NCBI GenBank assembly: GCA_963841435.1
Contig: CAWJCS010000004.1
Span: forward strand, 832,001-896,000
Origin: an uncultured delta proteobacterium
GTDB lineage: Bacteria; Myxococcota_A; Polyangia; Polyangiales; Polyangiaceae
Direction: 5' to 3'
DNA: 64,000 bases
Shown: positions 5,268-61,637 of the stretch, piece by piece
Position numbering within the stretch: position 1 is the stretch's first letter
Layout: every line of letters begins with the position of its first letter
The notes under the pieces: generated by a model
Databases searched by the model: none
What the model saw: only the letters and a program-made list of their open reading frames with translations
Told to the model about the DNA's origin: nothing
Translations under genes and position numbers: made by a program

Positions 5268-6846
5268 GTGATCGTCGAGGATCAGGGGGAGGTGATCGAC
5301 TTTCTTGCGCGGCCTGAGGCCGTACGGCGCCCGGGCGCTGTGCGCGCCGGCGTCGCAGGGGCGGCTGCGGAGAAAGCCGTCATCGATCGTGTCGACCGCA
5401 TTGACACGCACATCTCCCATGTTTTTCTCGCCGGCGACCATGCCTACAAGCTCAAGCGCGCCGTCCGCTTGCCGTATCTGGACTTCTCGAGCGAAGGGTT
5501 GAGGCGGCGCTGGTGCGAGCGGGAGGTGCGAGATCAACCGGCGGACGGCGCCGATGCTCTACCAGGGCTGCGTGCCGGTCGTCCGCACCGAAGGCGGCGG
5601 ACTTGCCATCGGCGGCGAGGGCCAGGCGGTCGACTGGCTGGTGATCATGGCCCGCTTCGCCACCGATGCCGTTTTCGACCGTATCGCCGCCGCCGGTCGC
5701 CTCGATCGCTTCGCCGTCGAGATTCTCGCCGACGTCGTCGCCCGCTTCCACGCCTCGGCCGAGCCGCGCCCCACTCACGGCGGCGCGGCGGCGCTCGCCC
5801 GCGTGCTCGCCGGCAACCGGACGAGCTTCGCCGAATGTCGCGGGGAACAGCCTCGATCCGGACGCCGTCGGCCGCCTCGACGCCGGAACCGCGGCGATGC
5901 TGGAAGCGCGTCGCTCCCATCCTCGATAAACGCAGCGGCGAGGGTTTCGTCCGCCGCTGCCACGGCGATCTGCACCTTCGCAACATCGTTGCCTGGAACG
6001 GCCTGCCGGTGCTTTTCGATGCCATCGAGTTCTCGGATGCGCTCGCCGAGATCGACGTCCTCTACGACCTCGCATTCCTGGTCATGGACGTGAGCGAACG
6101 CTGTGGGCGGCACCTCGCCTGCCTGCTGCTCAACCGCTACCTCGACGCAACCGACGACACCGCCGGCCTCGCGGCGATGCCGCTGTTCCTATCGGTCCGT
6201 GCGGCGATCCGCAGTCACGTCGAGGCGGCGGCGGCGGGAACGGGAGGCGGCGAGGAGGCGCGGCGCGGCGGCGGCGCGTTATCTCGGCGAGGCGGAGGCT
6301 TATCTGGCGCCGCGGCCGCCCCGTCTGATCGCCCTCGGCGGTCTGTCCGGCTCCGGCAAGTCGCGCCTCGCCCGCGGCCTCGCCCCGTTCGTCGGCCTCG
6401 CCCCCGGTGCCCGCATCGTCCGTACCGACACCACCCGCAAACGCCTGGCCGGCGTCGGCTTCAACACCCGCCTGGCACCCGCCCTTTACGGCGAGGCGAT
6501 GACCCGCAGGACCTACGAGGCGGTCTACGCCGAGGCGAGAGCGGCGCTCGCCGCCGGCTACGCAGTGATTGCCGACGCCGTCTTCGGCAAACCCGAAGAG
6601 CGCGCCGCCATCGCCCGCGTTGCCGAAGACGCCGGCGTGCCCTTCCAGGCGCTGTGGCTGCAGGCGCCCGCGGCGGTTCTCGAGGAGCGGGTGACCCGCC
6701 GCAAGATGAATGCATCCGATGCGACGGCGGAGGTGGTGCGACTGCAATTGTCCTATGACCTCGGCCCCATCGACTGGCCGCGGTTGGATACGCAGGCGGC
6801 GACGGAGGTCGTGCTCGCCGACGCCCGCCGCCGGCTCGGCTGTTGA
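5268..6846 (+). CDS. Bifunctional aminoglycoside-phosphotransferase-like / AAA_33 kinase protein (frameshifted)
   Basis: IDTHISHVFLAGDHAYKLKRAVRLPYLDFS; RCHGDLHLRNI; YDLAFLVMD; C-terminal P-loop GGLSGSGKS. Confidence 0.85.
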
Positions 6847-17376: not shown

Positions 17377-18123
17377 TCAGTAGGTGCGGATGAGGGCGAC
17401 GAGACGGCCCTGAACCTTGACCTGCTCGGGGCCGCAGATGCGGGTCTCGTACTTGGGGTTGGCGGGTTCGAGGGCAATCGAGTTGCCGCGCCGGCGCAGA
17501 CGCTTCAGCGTCACCTCCTCGTTGTCGACGAGGGCGACGACGATCGCGCCGTTATCGGCATTGTCGGTGCGCTCGATGATCACCGTATCGCCGTCGAAGA
17601 TTCCGGCCTCGATCATCGAATCGCCTTCGACCTCGAGCGCGTAGTGCTCGTTGCGGGAGATCAGCTCCTGCGAGACATCGATACTCCTCGACTGGTCGCG
17701 CAGCGCCGTGATCGGCGTTCCGGCGGCGATCTTCCCGTACAGCGGCAAGGTGACGATGCCCCGCGGCGGCGCCGCTTCCGGTTCCGGCTCGGGCGAGCGG
17801 AAATCGTGGCGGATGACGTTCGACGGCAGCCGTTCCGAGGGCGGGAGAGCCCGGATGCCGCGGTTGCGGCAGAGGCCGGGCCTGTTGCCGGTTCGCTGCC
17901 GCCGATGTTGCTCGGCATGCGAATGATTTCGAGCGCGCGCGCCCGATGCGGCAGGCGGCGGATGAACCCCCGTTCCTCAAGGCCGGTGATCAGCCGATGG
18001 ATTCCCGACTTTGAGCGCAGCCCGAGCGCCTCCTTCATCTCGTCGAAGGAGGGTGGCACCCCAGCCTCCTGCAGAGCGCCGACTGATGAACATCAAGAGC
18101 TCATGCTGTTTGCGTGTGAGCAT
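17377..18123 (-). CDS. lexA: SOS repressor LexA (frameshifted)
   Basis: [61 protein letters not shown] cleavage site; GDSM; TLKR. Confidence 0.96.
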
Positions 18124-18208
18124 CGACCTCTCCTACCAACCCTGTAATTCCCCGTGGGCCACGCACCGGTTGAGTCCGGTCGCGCCGAGTTCCTTTGCGC
18201 AGAATTTA

Positions 18209-18248
18209 GAACAAAAACCAAACCGGGCGCAATGTTCTATTTTGGTTC
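18209..18248. promoter_or_regulatory. Two alphaproteobacterial LexA (SOS) boxes upstream of lexA
   Basis: GAAC-aaaaacc-AAAC at 18209-18223 (one mismatch) and perfect GTTC-tattttg-GTTC at 18234-18248. Confidence 0.88.
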
Positions 18249-29858: not shown

Positions 29859-30351
29859 TCAGCCGGCAAGCGTCTCGCGCAGCAGCGCCACCGCCCGCCG
29901 CACGGTGGCGAGGCGGACGGCCTGGCGGTCGCCGGGGAAGACCTCGCGGTGGTGGCGAATGGGGCCGCCCTTCACCGCCGCCGCCATGTGGACGAGGCCG
30001 ACCGGCCGGCCGGGTGAGCCGCCGCCCGGCCCGGCGATGCCGGTGACGGCGAGGCCGACGTAGGCATGCGAGCGGGCGAGCGCGCCTTCCGCCATCGCCC
30101 GCGCCACCTCCTCCGACACCGCGCCCTTCGTCCGCAGCAGCTCCCGCCGGCACGCCGAGCAGCTCCTCCTTCGCCTCGTTCGAATAGGTGACGAACCCGC
30201 GGTCGAACACATCCGACGACCCGGCGATCGCGGTCAGCAGCCCGGCGATCAGCCCGCCCGTACACGACTCCGCCACCGCCAGCGTCATCCCCCGCGCCCG
30301 GCAGCGGTCGAGAATATCGGCGGCCAGCGCCAGGTCTTCATCGGTGAACAT
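29859..30351 (-). CDS. cinA: CinA family NMN amidohydrolase (frameshifted)
   Basis: [40 protein letters not shown]. Confidence 0.92.
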
Positions 30352-30409
30352 ATGTGCATTCCATCCGCAACATTTCTACAGATTAGTTTTCCGAGCTTTC
30401 TCATATGCC

Positions 30410-31594
30410 TCACGGATTTGGTGCGGGAATAGGGAATTGACCTGCGGACTGCGACTGCTCAGGAGGCGTACCTTGTTCTCCCTTCTGCCCGACGGAAGAC
30501 GTTGCCGCCGCGTACGTGCCCGCCCGTCGCTGAGCGGAGCGGTTAGCCCAGCCGGCCGGAAGAAAGGATGGGATTTCCTGCGGCTGTTGGAAAAAAATGT
30601 AGTTTATGAAGGTGCCGAAACGCGCCTCCGCATCGTTCAGCAGCGACTGGCAGCTTAGGATCCCGTCCAGATTGTTGCCTACCGATTTCCAATGGATGCG
30701 CTGATCTTTCTTTTTCTTAAGTGAGAACCCCACCGCTGTTCGCAAAACAAGTTGGGCATGGGTCATGTCGCCTGACGCCACAAAAGAGAGAGCAAAACCA
30801 TCGTCCGTGACTTCGTGGTAATCCTTCAAAGTTGAAAGTATCGCCCAGACAACCGAGCGCGGCACTCCCTCAGTCCGCACGCCCGCGGCGTCGTGCAGGT
30901 ATGCATCAGACACCCGAAACTTGGCTCGGTACCCATCCGACGTTGAGTGCTTCTCACCGATCCACTCGCCTTCGATGCGCAGACCAGCCCCCTCCCTCGG
31001 GACAATCCAATAATCGCCGGCTAGGAAATTCATCAGATCATGTTTGACCGCCAGCTCGAAATCGACTGTTACGGAGTGGCCGTCAACGGGCGCCGCAATG
31101 TCAGGATCGAACAATATCCAGAAACCGAGGGCGCGCGGACGCCACGCAATCAGCAACGGCTTTTGCATCAACGAGGCATAGGCTTGGAGACGCTGCAGGT
31201 AAGATTTTTTGAGTTTCAGGAACATATCTTTGCTGGTCTTGACCTCAATCAGCGTGCTGCACTTCTGGTCGCCAATTTGGAAAACCGCAAACAGATCTGG
31301 CACCTTCCACAAACTGCGCGCCGAGTTTTCAAGCACATCTTCGCTAAGTCTATGGACGAAAGTGCAACAGCCGAGCCAGCGGAGAATGGCAGCGAACTCT
31401 ATTTCTGAGGACAGTCCATATTCAACGTGCTGAACTTGACGGATAAACTTCTTAACATCCGAAAAATTCCAGTTAAGGTGCTCCGCTGCTTTAACAACAG
31501 TGTGTGCGGCATCTGTTGCCGCAAATGGTTCGGCCATTCTGTCGAACTGAGGTCGTTGAGCCGTCGGTGGCCGACTTGTGGGCGGATCGCTCAT
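30410..31594 (-). CDS. PD-(D/E)XK nuclease, Hjc/restriction-endonuclease-like, 394 aa
   Basis: GLSSEIEF...VPDLF...LIEVKT catalytic pattern; intact ORF in an AT-richer patch. Confidence 0.72.
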   Translation of the reverse strand: MSDPPTSRPPTAQRPQFDRMAEPFAATDAAHTVVKAAEHLNWNFSDVKKFIRQVQHVEYGLSSEIEFAAILRWLGCCTFVHRLSEDVLENSARSLWKVPDLFAVFQIGDQKCSTLIEVKTSKDMFLKLKKSYLQRLQAYASLMQKPLLIAWRPRALGFWILFDPDIAAPVDGHSVTVDFELAVKHDLMNFLAGDYWIVPREGAGLRIEGEWIGEKHSTSDGYRAKFRVSDAYLHDAAGVRTEGVPRSVVWAILSTLKDYHEVTDDGFALSFVASGDMTHAQLVLRTAVGFSLKKKKDQRIHWKSVGNNLDGILSCQSLLNDAEARFGTFINYIFFQQPQEIPSFLPAGWANRSAQRRAGTYAAATSSVGQKGEQGTPPEQSQSAGQFPIPAPNP

Positions 31595-31810
31595 TGTACC
31601 ACGTTCAACATCAAGGCCATTGTTCGACAGTCTTTGTTCCTCTCGTAGCGTGGCTGACGACCACGCTCCGTAGAAATCACGGCTCGCACAGGGTGTAATA
31701 GCATCAGCGTATTGCGCCGGATGAGGCGTGGATCACACTTTGATGATCCTGCCCCTACCGTTCTCCGACGCCGGAGGTTTCACGAGCGTGCCCGAAGGTC
31801 CGAGGTCGCG

Positions 31811-32362
31811 TCAGTGCATGCGGATGAGTTGATCGGCCTTCTGCCGCTGCTCCGGCGTCAGCGCCTGGTAGAGGGCATCGAAGGCCGGCTTGATCTTCTT
31901 CATCGCGGCGAGATGCTCTTCCATCATCTGCAGGTGCCGGTCGAGCCACTGCGGCAGTGTCGCGTCCGGCTGGCCGGGTGTCGGCATCCACTTCTGCTGG
32001 GACTCGGCCAGGCTCTTCATCTGCGCGCGGACGACGTCGGCGAAGGCGTTCCAGGGGCCGCTCTGCGCCTCGGTGATGCCGAGCCACGACTTGAGGAAGG
32101 CGAGTTTGCCCTCGGCGAAGGCCTGGATCATGCCGGGCGCCATCATCATCCCGTGATGCCCGCCTGGACCCATCATCCACGGAGCCCATCATCCACGGAC
32201 CCCAGTCCCGTGACCCATTCCGGGCCCCATCATACCCGGCCCCATCATCGGCCCGGGCTGCCGGGCCGGTGCCTGCGGCTCCGCCGGCGGCTGCTGGGCG
32301 AAGGCGCTGCCGGCGAGGATCAGCGAGGCTGCGGCGAGCGAAGCGGCGAATTTTCCGGTCAT
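31811..32362 (-). CDS. Spy/CpxP (LTXXQ) family periplasmic protein with Met/Gly/His-rich N-terminus (frameshifted)
   Basis: Signal peptide ...AGSAFA; MMGPG repeats; LGITEAQ; LYQALTPEQRQKAD. Confidence 0.8.
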
Positions 32363-33600: not shown

Positions 33601-33810
33601 TCCTCCATATCGTTGGTTTCGTAAGACTTGTGCGCAATCGTGTACTGTCTGCGGGAGCCGAGGGCAAGTCCTCCATACCACCTAATGGGGAATGCCGAGG
33701 GATCCTTAAGAGCATACGCTGATGCCCGAACGGCGCCGGGCTGCGCGAGCCGAAATTGCCCGGTCCGCTTGGAGCATGTCGTTGCCCGTAGCGCGGCCGG
33801 GGAGCGGGAG

Positions 33811-33886
<76 letters not shown>

Positions 33887-33937
33887 ATCGCCGCGGGTGG
33901 GGGCGAGGGGCGATCCGACCCGGCCCACGATGCGCCG

Positions 33938-33967
33938 CTTATAACAAGCCGGGCGGCTTTGTGTCCA
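33938..33967 (-). promoter_or_regulatory. Putative sigma70 promoter of tRNA-Phe
   Basis: Minus strand TGGACA...TGTTATAAG about 50 nt upstream of the tRNA. Confidence 0.5.
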
Positions 33968-34114
33968 GCCGCCCCGGCCGCGGCGCGGTCGGCGGCGGTC
34001 GGTGAGCACACCGGTCCGGCCGCGTTGCCTTTTCATGAGAGGACGAGTGCCTTTCGGGCGGTTCGAGATCCGGAGTTTAGGCCTAACCCATTGATGACAA
34101 GCCATACCCGCGAA

Positions 34115-34274
34115 GTGCGCGGCGAAAATGTCGTCATTCGTCGTCATTTGTCGGCAAACGTCGTCATCGGCAGCCGGTGCGCGGCGAAAATGTCGTCATC
34201 GAGGCACCCACCGCGGCCCACAATGTCGTCATTCGTTCGTCAAATGTCGTCATGTGTCGGCACGATGTCGTCAT
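34115..34274. repeat. Helically phased array of GTCG(T/G)CA heptamers
   Basis: Copies start at 34130, 34140, 34150, 34160, 34192, 34225, 34236 (TTCGTCA), 34246, 34256, 34267; includes a 23-bp perfect duplicate at 34115-34137 and 34177-34199. Confidence 0.9.
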
Positions 34275-34330
34275 ACCGGTTCGCCCGCCTGGGATCCGAA
34301 TCGCCGGACGATTGCTGCGCGCCGGGAATG

Positions 34331-34371
34331 GAACATAATACGAACATACGCGAAGCCGCGGCGCCGGTCAA
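34331..34371 (-). promoter_or_regulatory. Sigma70-type promoter overlapped by a perfect LexA box
   Basis: Minus strand TTGACC-N17-TATGTT; GAAC-ataatac-GAAC at 34331-34345 overlaps -10/+1. Confidence 0.8.
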
Positions 34372-34406
34372 CGCCCCCGCCCGACTGCGCGGAATCGCCA
34401 AGACAG

Positions 34407-34859
34407 TTACTTGTCGAAGGTCGTCAGGGGCGCCCCGTCGTCGGCGACGAACACGGCCAACAGGCTCGCCGGCTCGGTCGCACTCGCGTTCTCGCTGACG
34501 AGGTGCTCGCTGCCCGGCGGCTCGAAGAAGCTCTCGCCGGCGCTATAGACCCGGGCCGGTCCGGTCGCGGAGTTTTCCGAGCGAATTGTTCCCGAGAGCA
34601 CGTAGGCGAATACGCTTCCGGCGTGGTGGTGCGCGCTGGAGTGTCCGCCGGGGCCATAGGTGACGACGAGTGCTGTGAGGGTCTTGCCCGGAACGTTCGG
34701 CAGTTTCTCCGCGAATGCCTGCTTCACCTCGGCGCCCGCGCCCTCGGCGGATGCGCTCGACGTGGGGCCGGCCAACACTATTCCGGCCAGTATCACACCG
34801 GTCGACAGCAACGCCGCCGCAGCCGGCAAACGGCGGTGCGTCCGATACCCTTGTCTCAT
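34407..34859 (-). CDS. Secreted cupin-domain protein
   Basis: Signal-like N-terminus; HHHAGSVFAYVLSG; GESFFEPPGSEH. Confidence 0.85.
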   Translation of the reverse strand: MRQGYRTHRRLPAAAALLSTGVILAGIVLAGPTSSASAEGAGAEVKQAFAEKLPNVPGKTLTALVVTYGPGGHSSAHHHAGSVFAYVLSGTIRSENSATGPARVYSAGESFFEPPGSEHLVSENASATEPASLLAVFVADDGAPLTTFDK

Positions 34860-35346
34860 CATTGCGCCCCCCGTTGAGCCTCTTCGGGCGCTCGCGTGGG
34901 CAGGTGCCGGCGGATGCACCGAGCGGAAGCCGATGGCGATCCGGTTCCAGGCATTGATGGTGCCGATGAGCACCGTCAGCTTGACCAGCTCGTCCTCCGC
35001 GAAGTGCCGGCGCGACCTCCTCGAAGACGGCATCCGGGGCGTGCGTCTCGGAGATCAGGGTGAGTGCTTCCGTCCAGGCCAGGGCCGCCCGCTCGCGCTC
35101 GCTGTAGAGCGGCGATTCTCGCCAGGCGTCGAGCAGGTACAGGCGTTCCTCCGTCTCGCCGCGGGCGCGGGCGTCGCGCGTATGCATCTGGATGCAGAAG
35201 GCGCAGCCGTTGATCTGCGACGCGCGCGTCTTCACCAGCTCGATGAGCGACGATTCCAGCCCGCAGTTGCGCACGTGGTTTTCGAGCGCGCCCATCGCCT
35301 TCATCGTCTCCGGCGCCGCCTGATAGGGGTTCAGTCTCGGTTGCAT
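34860..35346 (-). CDS. Carboxymuconolactone decarboxylase/AhpD family protein (frameshifted; 3' end uncertain)
   Basis: ELVKTRASQINGCAFC; AWRESPLYSERERAALAWTE; INAWNRIAI. Confidence 0.88.
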
Positions 35347-35400
35347 CGTCTCGCCCTCCCCGATTGACTATGTGGGAGCCGCCGACATCGAGGACGCGTT

Positions 35401-38220
35401 CTAATGCGCGGAGCCCCAGTCGCGGCCGGTGCCGGTGTCGACGACGAGCGGGACGGAGAGGTCGGCGACCGACTGCATCGTCCGCACCACTACCTCGCGG
35501 GTCGGCTCGACCTCGGCGTCCGCCACCTCGAAGATCAGCTCGTCATGCACCTGCAAGAGCATTTTTGCAGCGAGCCCGGCCGCTTCGAGCGCCGCCGGCA
35601 GCCGGATCATCGCCCGCTTGATGATATCGGCGGCGCCGCCCTGGATCGGCGCGTTGATCGCCGCCCGTTCGGCAAACGCCGCGCGCCGCCGGGTTCTTGT
35701 CGGCGATCCCCTTGCGTATGGCAGCGCCGGCCGAACAGCGTCGTCACGAACCCCTTCGTCCGGGCGTCGCGCTTGGTCCGTTCCATGTAATCGCGGATGC
35801 CGGGGTAGCGGGCGAAGTAGGCGTCGATGTAGGCGCCGGCTTCGCCGCGGCCGATGCCGAGCTGGCGGGCGAGGCCGAAGGCGGAGATGCCGTAGATGAT
35901 GCCGAAGTTGATCGCCTTCGCCTTCCTGCGGACGAACGGGTCCATGCCCTCGATCGGCACGCCGAACACCTGGCTCGCCGTCATCGCGTGGATGTCGTGG
36001 CCGTCGCGGAAGGCGTCCTTGAGCTGGCCGATGTCGGCGACGTGGGCGAGCAGCCGCAGCTCGATCTGCGAATAGTCGGCACTCAGCAGGACGTGCCCGG
36101 CGGGGCGACGAAGGCACTGCGGATCTTCCGTCCCTCCTCGGTGCGGACGGGGATGTTCTGCAGGTTCGGATCGGACGACGACAGCCGGCCGGTCGACGCC
36201 ACGGCCTGCTGATAGGAGGTGTGGACGCGGCCCGTTTGCGGGTCGATCTGGCCGATCAGCGCATCGGCGTAGGTGCGTCTTCAGCTTGGCGAGCTGCCGC
36301 CAGTCGAGCACCTTGGCCGGCAGCGGCTGGCCTTCGAGCGCCAGCAGTTCGAGGATATCGGCGCCGGTGGCATAGGCGCCCGTCTTGCCCTTCCGGCCGA
36401 CGCCGAGGCCCATCTCGTCGAACAGCACCTCGCCCAGCTGCTTCGGCGAGCCGATGTTGAAAGGACGGCCGGCAAGGCCGTAGATCTCGCGTTCCAGATC
36501 GCCGAGGCGCGCGGCGAAGTCCTCGCTCAGGCGGTGCAGCGCGTCCCGATCGACGAGGATGCCGTGCGCGCTCCATCGCCGCCAGCACCGGCACCAGCGG
36601 CCGCTCCAGCGTCTCGTAGACGGTGACCAGCCGCTCCGCCAGCAGCCGCGGCTTGAGGGCGGCGTGCAGTGCGAGCGTCACCTCGGCGTCCTCGGCGGCA
36701 TAGGCGAGGGCCCGGTCGGGCGGCACCCGGTCGAAGCGGAGCTGCGCCTTGCCGGTGCCGGCGACTTCCGCGTAGCTGATCGTCGTCCGGCCGAGATGCA
36801 GGGATGCCAGCTCGTCTATGCCGTGGCCGTGCAGGCCGCCTTCGAGCACGTAGGACAGCAGCATGGTGTCGTCGAACGGCGCGAGCGCGATGCCGTGGCC
36901 GGCGAAGACATGGGCGTCGAACTTGATGTCGTGGCCGATCTTGAGGACCGAGTGCGTCTTCCAGCAGCGGCTTCAGCAGCTGCAGCGCCCGATCCGGCGT
37001 CGAGCTGCGGCAGGACGCGAGCGCCGCCGGCATCGGTGTGGGCGAGCGGGATGTAGCACGCCTCGCCGGCAGCAATCGCCAGCGACACGCCGACGAGCGG
37101 CCGCCGTAAGCGGGTCGCGCGCCGTCGTCTCGGTCTCGACGGCGACGCATCCTGCCTCGTGCGCGCGGGCGATCAAGAGGGCGAGTTGGGCCTCCTCGGT
37201 GACGAGCGCGTAGGCGGCCGGAGCGGCGGGCGCCGGCGTCGGCGATGTCGAGGGCGAGCTGGGCCTGCGCCGCCTTCGCCGGCGTGCGACGGCGCCGGGA
37301 TCGCCGCAGGTCGAGGCGGGCGATCAGCGAGCGGAACGCCTGCGCCTGCAAGAACGCCTTCAGCGCCGCGCGGTCCGGCTCGCGCTTGGCCAGCGCCGAA
37401 AGCGGCTCCGGCACCGCCACGTCGTCGGCGAGCGTCACCAGCCGCTTCGACAGCCGCGCGTTCTCGGCGTGCGCGATCAGCGCCTCGCGCCGCTTCGGCT
37501 GAGCGATCGAGCCGGCGCCGGCGAGCAGCGTCTCCAGATCGCCGAACTCGCGGATGAGCTGGGCGGCGGTCTTGACGCCGATGCCGGGGACGCCGGGTAC
37601 GTTGTCGGTCGGATCGCCGGCGAGCGCCTGCACGTCGATGACCTTCTCCGGGCCGACACCGAACTTCTCCTCCACCTCGGCGGCGCCGATCGCCCGGTTG
37701 TTGACCGGGTCCCACATGCCGACGCCGTCGCCGACGAGCTGCATCAGGTCCTTGTCGGACGAGACGATGGTCACCTCGGCGCCGGCCTCGCGGGCGAGGC
37801 GCGCGTATGTCGCGATCAGGTCGTCCGCCTCGAAGCCTTCGGATTCGACGCAGGCGACGTTGAAGGCGCGCACCGCCTCGCGGATCAGCGGGAACTGCGG
37901 CACCAGCGCGTCCGGCGGCTCCGGCACGGTTGGCCTTGTAGGCGGGATAGAGGTCGTCGCGGAAGGTGCGACGGGCGGCATCGAAGACGACGGCGATGTG
38001 ATCGGCGTCGGTCTCCTTGAGGAGCTTGATCAGCATCGTGGTGAAGCCGAAGACGGCGTTGACCGGCGTGCCGTCCGGCCGGGTCATCGGCGGCAGCTTG
38101 TGGAAGGCGCGGAAGATGAAGCCCGAGCCGTCGACCAGATAGACGTGGCGAGGTGCGGGGCGGGAAGGGGCCGCCGACGGCTCGGCCGCCGGCGCGGGCC
38201 GGCGGCGGTGCTTCGGCGTC
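35401..38220 (-). CDS. polA: DNA polymerase I (multiple frameshifts; start approximate)
   Basis: [62 protein letters not shown]. Confidence 0.95.
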
Positions 38221-61154: not shown

Positions 61155-61358
61155 TTAGTTGTCCTGCCCTTCGCCGATGCGCGGTGGGCCCGGCCGACGC
61201 TGGGCTATTTCCACCAGCGTTTCTATCCGGATCAGCCGGCCTTCGTGATCGATCACGCGCTTGCTCACGTCCTGCAGGCCGTCCGCCAGTTGCTGAAGCT
61301 TGCTCTCCATCAGTATCACCTGGCGGATGCTCTTGAGCAGGCTGTCGATCGTGCTCAT
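61155..61358 (-). CDS. Small coiled-coil hypothetical protein (in frame with upstream RHH ORF as assembled)
   Basis: MSTIDSLLKSIRQVILMESKLQQLADGLQDVSKRVIDHEGRLIRIETLVEIA; starts at an ATGA. Confidence 0.6.
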   Translation of the reverse strand: MSTIDSLLKSIRQVILMESKLQQLADGLQDVSKRVIDHEGRLIRIETLVEIAQRRPGPPRIGEGQDN

Positions 61359-61637
61359 CCGAAGCGCCCGTGAGCGGCCCAGGTCGATCTCCTCAAAGTA
61401 ATGCCGCATGGCTTGCAGCTCGGCGAGGGCGGCATCCACTTTTGCTTCGGTCTGTTCGACCACGGCGGCCAGTTCCTCGGCGAGAAGTCGCAAGGTCCCG
61501 TCATTGCGATCGGGATCGTAAGCTTCGACCGCCCTGCGCACCAACTCGCTAGAGGTGATCCCCAGTGCCTTGGCCTGCGCCTCGATTGACGCCTTCGCCT
61601 CGGGCGTGAGCAGGATGGTCAGGCGTGCGGACCGCAT
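61355..61637 (-). CDS. CopG-like ribbon-helix-helix protein
   Basis: RLTILLTPEAKASIEAQAKALGITSSELVRRAV: beta-strand then two helices with G-x-(S/T)-x-S-E-L-V-R. Confidence 0.75.

Follow-up and report, generated by a model that had tools for sequence, protein, structure and literature searches.

Helically phased GTCGTCA arrays dispersed in Rhodospirillales-like genomes, with a small-terminase-like protein as predicted partner

Which protein reads a non-coding run of short direct repeats, set at about one per helical turn, when no gene for such a protein lies nearby? The question is raised by a 64,000-nucleotide stretch of DNA (positions 832,001 to 896,000 of contig CAWJCS010000004.1, here C4, in assembly GCA_963841435.1), the whole of which is called the window below; coordinates are those of the window unless a contig is named. 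The window carries an array of GTCGKCA heptamers at 34130–34273, which a first-pass annotation had taken for a site of cooperative protein binding on one face of the DNA. We find that the array very probably belongs to a dispersed family of repeat arrays, and that it is probably an orphan binding array for a small-terminase-like (TerS-like) protein acting in trans, organised like cosB of phage lambda or a pac site.

Pattern search reproduced all annotated starts and the start-to-start steps of 10, 10, 10, 32, 33, 11, 10, 10 and 11 bp. Nine plus-strand copies match GTCGKCA exactly (starts 34130, 34140, 34150, 34160, 34192, 34225, 34246, 34256 and 34267); the count of ten stood only with the copy at 34236, which reads TTCGTCA and carries one mismatch. 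The copies form a four-heptamer block with exact 10-bp steps (34130–34166), a single heptamer at 34192 and a five-heptamer block (34225, 34236, 34246, 34256 and 34267; 34225–34273), all on the plus strand, and each multi-copy block includes one GTCGGCA variant (34150 and 34256), as had been noted. The perfect 23-bp duplicate (GTGCGCGGCGAAAATGTCGTCAT) described earlier was recovered by repeat analysis on the plus strand at 34115–34137 and 34177–34199, 62 bp apart, the second copy containing the single heptamer and marking an internal duplication; GCGGCGAAAATGTCGTCAT is also found ahead of block B in L045/L139 (L numbers denote loci and G numbers genomes). Counted over both strands of the whole 7,783,927-bp assembly, as the annotation had proposed, GTCGKCA occurs 5382 times, giving by arithmetic a chance expectation of ~0.05 copies per 144 bp per strand. 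At least four same-strand copies within 170 bp occur in two places only, the window array (nine) and an acidic tract of coding sequence on contig C3, leaving the array as the sole non-coding cluster of this kind in the 7.78 Mb. Five of the 15 occurrences of ATGTCGTCAT in the assembly fall within it.

That the array is single in this assembly says little about its true host, because the end of C4 is probably a chimeric join in a noisy long-read metagenome assembly, or else a very large foreign segment. Tetranucleotide composition changes sharply at ~C4:812–813 kb, and the last ~97 kb of the contig, which ends at 909,933 and contains the whole window (C4:832001–896000), resembles no other 20-kb tile of the assembly. 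Its proteins are Rhodospirillales-like and the rest of the bin is of another lineage: the window polA is closest to Rhodospirillales-type records (best identity 68%, L037) and only 43–45% identical to those of the assembly's nominal genus, and the window pyruvate dehydrogenase E1 protein reaches at most 48% identity anywhere in the nominal order. In the nominal genus no heptamer array was present in 46 genomes searched, and no orthologue of the window's cupin gene was found. A second polA on the same contig (C4 ~330,500–333,000), 42–51% identical to that of the window, presumably belongs to the bin's main organism. Comparison with the nominal genus is misleading, since the window is foreign to the remainder of the assembly in both composition and phylogeny. 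Stop-free frames of at least 900 nt cover 0.71 of the foreign part versus 0.91–0.94 elsewhere; polA is split into at least four pieces (35401–38087), the CMD-family and cupin open reading frames (ORFs) overlap in different frames (34407–35346), lexA is frame-shifted (17377–18131, minus strand), and many genes are split across 34407–38087 and 17377–18131, which suggests uncorrected indel errors rather than pseudogenes. Because the segment is full of broken frames, single 10-versus-11-bp steps in the window could be such errors. All 24 public sequencing runs listed contain only 0.06 of the sampled words, namely the tRNA part, and leave the array uncovered.

Relatives were searched with the pair pattern GTCGTCA-N3-4-GTCGTCA, for which reversed-pattern controls returned 0–1 hits. 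The closed 4.35-Mb chromosome of G469 gave 92 pair hits at 20 loci, G066 68 at 20 loci, G064 39 at 17 loci, G063 four at three loci and G065 ten (loci not counted), and hits were present in 13 of the 19 genomes of the G066 genus. Across a class-wide sample, a triple pattern occurred in only 2 of 401 genomes, and one of these hits appears to be coding. The family is a dispersed cis-element of Rhodospirillales-like alphaproteobacteria, and the window copy is an orphan, i.e. one with no adjacent protein gene. Family copies are intergenic, often at contig ends and in variable regions. Their flanking genes are mostly housekeeping, with toxin-antitoxin pairs beside 3 of 16 elements in G066, and G469 flanks also hold TIR/SEFIR-STAND and TPR genes, an IS66 fragment and a RAYT-like ORF. 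Along the closed chromosome of G469 the 20 loci have mixed orientations, without replichore polarity. A metagenome scan added about 5 family-type architectures among 80 loci with DNA (L267, L273, L279, L312 and L260; in L312 a putative bend site of the kind described below was flagged and L260 has a promoter of the terS type), the remainder being generic or coding repeats. No published account of the element was found in the full-text literature covered, which excludes subscription-only papers, and the array family is previously undescribed.

Architecture within the family bears directly on how such arrays arise and what they bind. In 53 fetched copies a common plan recurs: unidirectional heptamer blocks, a site matching YAANNNNTTGATW between them, which we take to be the consensus of integration host factor (IHF), and a right-hand module with a -35-like TTGAC. 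Within blocks the heptamer varies as GTCGTCC, GTCATCA or GTCGGCA. Among 366 short gaps between neighbouring heptamers in 57 arrays, 285 are 10 or 11 bp (142 and 143, respectively) and a further 22 are 12 bp; the relaxed motif accounts for another 32, of 3 bp, which are overlaps. The 10–11-bp rule thus held in independent assemblies while the sequence between motifs was unconserved, a check that the annotation had proposed for homologues, and steps were neither random nor multiples of three. Its proposal that phase extends across gaps survives in part. Steps within blocks are phased, whereas the long gap over the IHF-like site is constant per genome (55 bp in G469, 75–76 bp in G066 and G064, 87 bp in some G064 copies) and corresponds to non-integral helical turns. 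Of 47 arrays, 37 contain the IHF-like site, in a constant orientation, compared with 6 hits on both strands of 145 kb of flanks. In the window it is TAACCCATTGATG (34074–34086, plus strand), equal to YAANNNNTTGATW except for the last base and aligned with TAACATATTGATA of L037, the closest relative (genome G063).

L037 shows the same order as the window, tRNA-Phe, conserved promoter block, TAACATATTGATA, four heptamers, GAACATAAAGCGAAC and the end of polA. Its entire array of four heptamers is orthologous to, and aligns with, the first block of the window, which is ~110 bases longer through the second 23-mer, the single copy and the five-copy block; the window array was therefore enlarged by internal duplication relative to L037. 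Such enlargement, together with the multi-copy, intergenic occurrence in variable regions, is what a selfish, slippage-made or miniature inverted-repeat transposable element-like repeat without a protein partner would produce, phasing then being a by-product of duplicating a 10–11-bp unit. This explanation appears very unlikely. Copies diverge outside the heptamers, the IHF-like site and the promoter module, with unlike spacers and linkers, and hence are not recent identical repeats; the pattern points to selection on the motifs. Inspection of the 53 copies by eye revealed neither terminal inverted repeats nor target duplications, all heptamers of an element run in the same direction, and the tRNA-Phe/polA copy has been kept between relatives whose polA is only 68% identical. 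Conserved phasing with variable linkers favours the suggested cooperative binding to one DNA face over slippage.

Several variations on these arrays were noted in passing. In G469 (L214–L233) an inverted heptamer (aATGACGACa) stands 3–5 nt before a forward one, between the IHF-like site and the five-copy block, the pair forming one two-fold symmetric site in an otherwise one-directional array. The spacers of the five-heptamer block of the window (aat/tgt/cgat) are similar to those of the G469 five-copy block. Arrays of a simpler type occur in G065 (L123:1501–1551) and G468 (C9:43030–43080), with GTCGTCA repeated five times at exactly 11 bp, spacers that are rich in GC and the IHF-like site missing; the L123 array lies ~100 nt upstream of a LemA-like gene, and a link of its five heptamers to kdp/KdpE was dropped when that neighbour was identified, by eye, as LemA-like. 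A separate repeat resembling repetitive extragenic palindromes (REP; cgtcattgcgagc...gaagcaatcca) adjoins L218, L219 and L225 of G469 and L149 of G066, and an ORF at L230:1889–2329 in G469 resembles a REP-associated tyrosine transposase by eye, with no Pfam hit. Viral contigs (L163–L191) were not used as support, the triple pattern yielding 29 loci there against 13 and 9 for two scrambled controls. Short GTCGTCA arrays with 10–11-bp steps do occur in unrelated phages of 25–72% GC, one of them (L180) with three blocks, and are probably ordinary phage iteron-like repeats.

A candidate partner emerged from G064, in which the right-hand module of three elements is replaced by a gene for a protein of 136–157 aa. 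The gene is transcribed toward the array, and its 3' end overlaps or abuts the last heptamer block (block B). All three proteins are Terminase_2 members (PF03592; 48.1, 37.7 and 43.8 bits, curated cut-off 26.1) and match phrog_51, terminase small subunit, and upstream of each gene a GAAC-N7-GAAC box stands beside TTGACA. The same terS-array arrangement is present on a marine metagenome contig (L267; hmmsearch E 1.8e-50) at an apparently orthologous DAHP-synthase locus. Terminase_2 scores range from 37.7 to 53.1 bits for seven proteins, two distant ones score 24.6 and 25.1, just under the cut-off, L422 has no hit, and no NCBIfam model matches the TerS-like protein. Homologues number one each in G469, G066, G063 and G065 and four in G064; the gene is present in 16 of the 19 genomes of the G066 genus, and a profile search in the family to which G064 belongs, a sister family, recovered homologues in 15 of 41 sampled genomes, often two to four in each. 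Phased repeats next to these genes were scored as chains of at least three identical 6-mers at 10–12-bp steps within 420 nt downstream of the terS 3' end, at 30 terS loci of that sister family and in 145 control tiles of the same loci. Chains were present at 8 of the 30 loci (6 of 27 outside G064) versus none of the control tiles (Fisher p = 3e-7; the loci are related). A self-similarity detector proved overly strict where an array has three copies (positive at 4 of 30 loci and in 3 of 150 controls), and this k-mer chain test took its place.

Which word follows terS depends on the genome. It is GTCGTC[AC] in G064, G488 and G498, GTAGACA in G500, where an IHF-like site interrupts the repeats, GTCAGCA in G490 (and as a pair in G489), GGTCATT in G486 and CCCCCAT in G492. 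Each of the three tested genome-specific heptamers is dispersed solely in its own genome: the GTAGACA pair gives 7 hits at 5 loci in G500 and none in four other genomes, the GGTCATT pair 12 hits at ~10 loci in G486 and 0–1 in four others, and the CCCCCAT pair 25 hits at ~14 loci in G492 (control 3) and none in four others. Orphan copies in G500 retain the plan of block, IHF-like site, block and promoter. In a profile alignment, S-x-[KR]-N-x-G-Y-R-L is common to all ten TerS-like proteins from GTCGTCA genomes, which include two groups mutually only 45–50% identical, and all five proteins from genomes with other heptamers differ at these positions. The AlphaFold model of the TerS-like protein (pLDDT 71.8) has six helices and places this segment at the start of helix 62–70, the third of the N-terminal bundle and the predicted recognition helix. 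Its ten best PDB matches are all small terminases, with weak E-values (at least 0.012); the best local fit is the DNA-binding domain of SF6 G1P (4zc3; TM 0.90, rmsd 1.0 Å over 56 columns, 34% identity). With a profile score above the cut-off and a modelled N-terminal helix-turn-helix (HTH) domain followed by long oligomerisation helices, the candidate looks like a small terminase. According to PMC4737164, adjacent HTH motifs of the SF6/SPP1 TerS ring lie about one B-DNA turn apart, such that ~100 bp could wrap the ring. The TerS-like protein is, on this combination of adjacency, covariation and fold, the predicted partner of the heptamers, and we hold that assignment to be reasonably probable.

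A number of observations weigh against this assignment. The covariation of helix and heptamer is confounded by relatedness. The isolated SF6/SPP1 TerS DNA-binding domain is reported to show little sequence specificity (PMC4737164), which fits oddly with a strictly conserved heptamer. In the G066 genus, which has the most GTCGTCA arrays, the single-copy terS-like gene lies between a P-type ATPase gene and prmC with no adjacent array, and although all 11 array-bearing genomes possess it, so do 5 of the 8 without arrays (0 or 1 pattern hit); arrays are missing from the three genomes that lack the gene, but also from three that have it. As evidence this co-occurrence is weak, the genomes being related and metagenome-assembled (MAGs). 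No phased chain was detected downstream at 22 of the 30 terS loci, nor beside any of 14 distant viral relatives of this TerS. The cassettes adjoin purH, DAHP synthase, histidine kinase, acs, aconitase and hutH genes, with no large terminase or other phage gene beside them, and only 2 of 5 array-bearing genomes, most of them MAGs, yielded an HK97-type capsid (PF05065; other capsid and large-terminase families were not searched). Finally, no TerS homologue was found in the assembly of the window; the cognate protein would go unseen because only ~97 kb of the true host seems to be present.

A rival reading has the arrays bound by another DNA-binding protein, with adjacency to terS as incidental cargo: an OmpR/PhoB-type regulator bound head-to-tail, a ParR/StbA-like protein or an excisionase/Cox-type filament former. 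Tandem direct repeats of 10–11 bp are a classic footprint of these families, most arrays (the window and all in G469 and G066) have no terS alongside, and toxin-antitoxin pairs and TIR/STAND genes adjoin arrays too. An example, described in PMC3098194, is the stbDRs of plasmid R388, two sets of five 9-bp repeats (TTGCATCAT) 2 nt apart, hence of 11-bp period, cooperatively bound in trans by the small HTH protein StbA; the four-plus-one-plus-five layout given in the annotation recalls them, and TTGCATCAT resembles the variant TGTCATCAT. The stbDRs, however, overlap the promoter of their own binding-protein gene on a plasmid, whereas the arrays here lie in several copies on the chromosome, and neither stb nor par genes were found in the flanks scanned. 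The parC/ParR system of plasmid R1 is an analogue of the same kind. No regulator, Par or recombinase gene recurs in those flanks; no family except terS is fused to arrays with a constant orientation, terS is enriched over controls, and heptamer identity follows the TerS-like protein of the genome. For OmpR/PhoB boxes the spacing fits, but copy numbers of 8–12 are unusual, no cognate regulator was identified, and the sole promoter-like site lies 70 bp from the array and is directed into it, on the wrong side for a -35-proximal activator site. We therefore consider a partner of this sort unlikely.

That promoter would connect the array to DNA damage. TTGACC-17-TATGTT (minus strand, 34343–34371; TTGACC starts at 34371 and TATGTT ends at 34343) is sigma-70-like, directed into the array, and the only promoter-like hit of a scan of 33700–34500, against a mean of 0.1 in shuffled sequences. 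Its -10 is overlapped by a LexA-type operator found by motif search, GAACATAATACGAAC (GAAC-N7-GAAC; plus strand, 34331–34345). Only four GAAC-N7-GAAC matches exist on both strands of the 64 kb. A near-identical box, GAACCAAAATAGAAC in minus-strand reading, lies just upstream of the window's own lexA (Peptidase_S24 ORF, 17377–17748); the perfect GAAC-N7-GAAC box there reads GTTCTATTTTGGTTC on the plus strand (18234–18248), and a second box, with one mismatch, also lies upstream of the gene (17377–18131, minus strand). The alphaproteobacterial LexA motif is a direct repeat, GTTC-N7-GTTC (PMC8565304). GAAC-N7-GTAC precedes recA in three of four genomes of relatives examined. By these marks, a direct repeat on a promoter and the same motif at the organism's SOS genes, the 34331–34345 box resembles a genuine operator, and we infer that LexA would bind it and IHF the IHF-like site. 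In the family, promoter and box stand to the right of the array and face it in L037, L120 and L132 (all three G063 loci) and in L138, L149 and L162; they accompany 8 of 13 G064 arrays and none of the 18 in G469, where an ATAGG-N7-9-CCTAT palindrome occupies the corresponding module.

A promoter directed into the array could also mean that the element acts as RNA, an SOS-induced transcript whose repeated UGACGAC titrates an RNA-binding protein or serves as antisense, or that it encodes a small repetitive peptide; the strongest copies, ATGACGACA on the minus strand, are 21, 21 and 33 nt apart and keep a 37-codon frame open. Such a role is extremely unlikely. On either strand the predicted folding of the window element is no better than that of shuffled sequence (z = +0.32 and -0.50), Rfam matches are tRNAs only, homologues step by 10/11 nt instead of multiples of three, many members (including all 18 in G469) have no LexA promoter, and an IHF-type site is a feature of DNA.

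Two further words were observed beside the arrays. A conserved word of ~22 nt, CTATTCAC(G/C)(A/G)TG(T/G)CAAAGAGCG, stands between arrays and the promoter/operator module in G064 (L234, L235, L238, L242, L243, L245, L246, L129 and L139), G500 (L432–L434) and G486 (L438), and would fall near the 5' end of a transcript entering the array. In 11 of 16 G066 elements (L148, L150–L155, L157–L159 and L161) the right end is GCAACCCGCCAACCTTGGCGGCTTGAC(G), a palindrome followed by a -35-like hexamer in place of the LexA box; a similar word is found in L220 and L233 of G469, ~50 nt left of the next element.

Among described systems, the nearest analogue is a cosB/pac-type recognition site, because the best candidate partner is a small-terminase-like protein; formally the array also resembles the R388 stbDRs. 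At lambda cosB, according to PMC4856287, the TerS gpNu1 binds sites R3, R2 and R1, and the IHF site I1 between R3 and R2 lets TerS dock through an IHF-enhanced bend. Here, likewise, heptamer blocks flank an IHF-like site and, in relatives, abut a terS gene. Lambda has three 16-bp sites by cosN and the terminase operon in a phage, whereas the arrays comprise from 4 to more than 12 heptamers, one turn apart, and adjoin neither a large terminase nor a cleavage site; the cassettes stand alone between housekeeping genes, and a chromosome has up to ~20 dispersed orphan copies. The pac region of SPP1, according to PMC4737164, has sets of direct repeats around terS, and SF6 G1P is the best structural match of the TerS-like protein; those repeats are few, poorly conserved and bound with low specificity at a packaging site, unlike the strictly conserved, genome-specific and dispersed heptamer. 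Of the features that characterise a TerS site, a position in or next to terS is seen at 8 of 30 loci and L267 in relatives, the arrays of the window, G469 and G066 being orphan; repeats on one face with an accessory bend are present in the gap and IHF-site counts given above; and a large terminase, capsid and cleavage site are absent from the neighbourhood, where cassettes have housekeeping neighbours. Satellites of the SaPI/PICI type encode a TerS that redirects helper-phage packaging, on islands of ~10–15 kb with integrase, replication and interference genes. Like the present elements, they pair a small terminase gene with a recognition site of its own, away from any complete phage, but the unit here is at most 1 kb (promoter, terS and array) and most copies have lost terS.

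Other kinds of site that the annotation had named fared less well, its view that any factor would act in trans agreeing with the lack of Rep, Par and integrase families among the 69 window ORFs scanned and of a TerS homologue in the assembly. Iterons are contradicted by the missing Rep family, by 17–20 dispersed loci per chromosome in relatives and by a blastn search of a plasmid collection that returned no match to the array. For a centromere, no Par/Stb families were found in the window or in the flanks of 36 fetched arrays. P1 parS has a central IHF site and short repeated boxes (heptamer box A) with ParB as partner, and the BIME/RIP elements of E. coli are dispersed intergenic mosaics with an IHF site, associated with gyrase and REP, the REPs being palindromic. 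The central IHF site is shared with both, as are the short boxes with the former and intergenic dispersal with the latter; the partners differ, the arrays are phased direct repeats and no ParB gene is linked. Attachment sites occupy the 3' end of the target tRNA, with an integrase gene adjacent and core inverted repeats. The array, in contrast, lies on the 5' side of tRNA-Phe, no integrase is present in the scanned ORFs, and the locus is syntenic in a relative without island genes, which speaks against an integrase/excisionase site. The array lacks features that define iterons, partition centromeres and integrase arm sites, and it matches promoter-proximal response-regulator boxes at most in part. 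A replication origin was also rejected, the motif being unlike the DnaA box and present in many copies per chromosome in relatives.

The surroundings of the array are ordinary. The tRNA-Phe (GAA) was found by ARAGORN at 33811–33886 on the minus strand, with its 5' side toward the array; it is the same neighbour as in L037, and Rfam reports tRNA in L024 and L128. Upstream of it a promoter-like TGGACA-18-TATAAG was seen by eye (33938–33967, minus strand), whose block CGCCGCTTATAACAAGC...TGTCCAGCCGC is conserved in the L037 alignment; it went unreported in the promoter scan on account of the G at position 6 of its second hexamer. On the other side of the array follow the 3' end of the minus-strand cupin gene (34407–35033), the CMD-family gene and polA. 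Elsewhere in the window, a stretch of low GC (0.587) at 30001–32000 holds a 394-aa ORF (30410–31594, minus strand) on the 3' side of tRNA-Phe, past sCache, DUF1499 and LTXXQ genes, with a weak Hjc-type nuclease match below the cut-off (19.4 versus 21.1 bits) as its only hit. An AAA_33/Zeta-toxin-like kinase ORF (6103–6846, plus strand) is distant from the array, and the only ribbon-helix-helix/NikA-like ORF (61155–61637, minus strand) lies 27 kb away.

The arrays most likely provide docking sites at which a DNA-binding protein, small-terminase-like, derived from a phage and standing alone, assembles. With GTCGTCA directly repeated once per turn, they would offer a single helix face to a ring or filament of HTH domains, and the Terminase_2 protein, encoded elsewhere in the genome, would oligomerise on them in trans with one HTH per turn. 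An IHF-type bend between blocks could then fold both onto one particle, as at lambda cosB, and the window copy would be a terS-less orphan served in this way. The putatively LexA-repressed promoter reading into the window array would tie the element to the SOS response, DNA damage altering the complex either through more protein (LexA boxes precede the G064 terS genes) or through transcription across the array. As to function, we rank first an SOS-linked nucleoprotein switch or regulator derived from a domesticated TerS; a domesticated regulator, a chromosome-structuring role or a defence/decoy role fits stable syntenic cassettes among housekeeping genes. Ranked second are pac/cosB-like sites at which the packaging of chromosomal DNA into capsids would begin. 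The protein family suits such a role, for which neighbouring genes give no support and an HK97-type capsid was present in only two of five genomes. In its widest and quite improbable form it would be a chromosome-wide network in which, after LexA release, the TerS-like protein and IHF on dozens of genome-specific arrays hand adjoining DNA, often holding toxin-antitoxin and defence genes, to the terminase and capsid of a prophage or a gene-transfer-agent-like particle. The mirror image, a decoy that sabotages phage packaging, is possible.

The way in which TerS recognises DNA has long been unclear, and a spacing of one heptamer per turn would suit that of the HTH motifs in TerS rings. Should the arrays be read by the TerS-like protein, this would be a small terminase whose recognition word is clear, short and genome-specific, and the natural covariation set (GTCGTCA, GTAGACA, GTCAGCA, GGTCATT and CCCCCAT, with matching helix changes) would be a ready specificity code. 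These alphaproteobacteria would then carry a terminase module outside any phage, under SOS control and with its sites spread over the chromosome. Both outcomes are testable: a phage DNA-recognition protein recycled as a regulator, or addressed packaging sites that move chromosomal genes, which in the network form would amount to a built-in, sequence-addressed system of lateral gene transfer.

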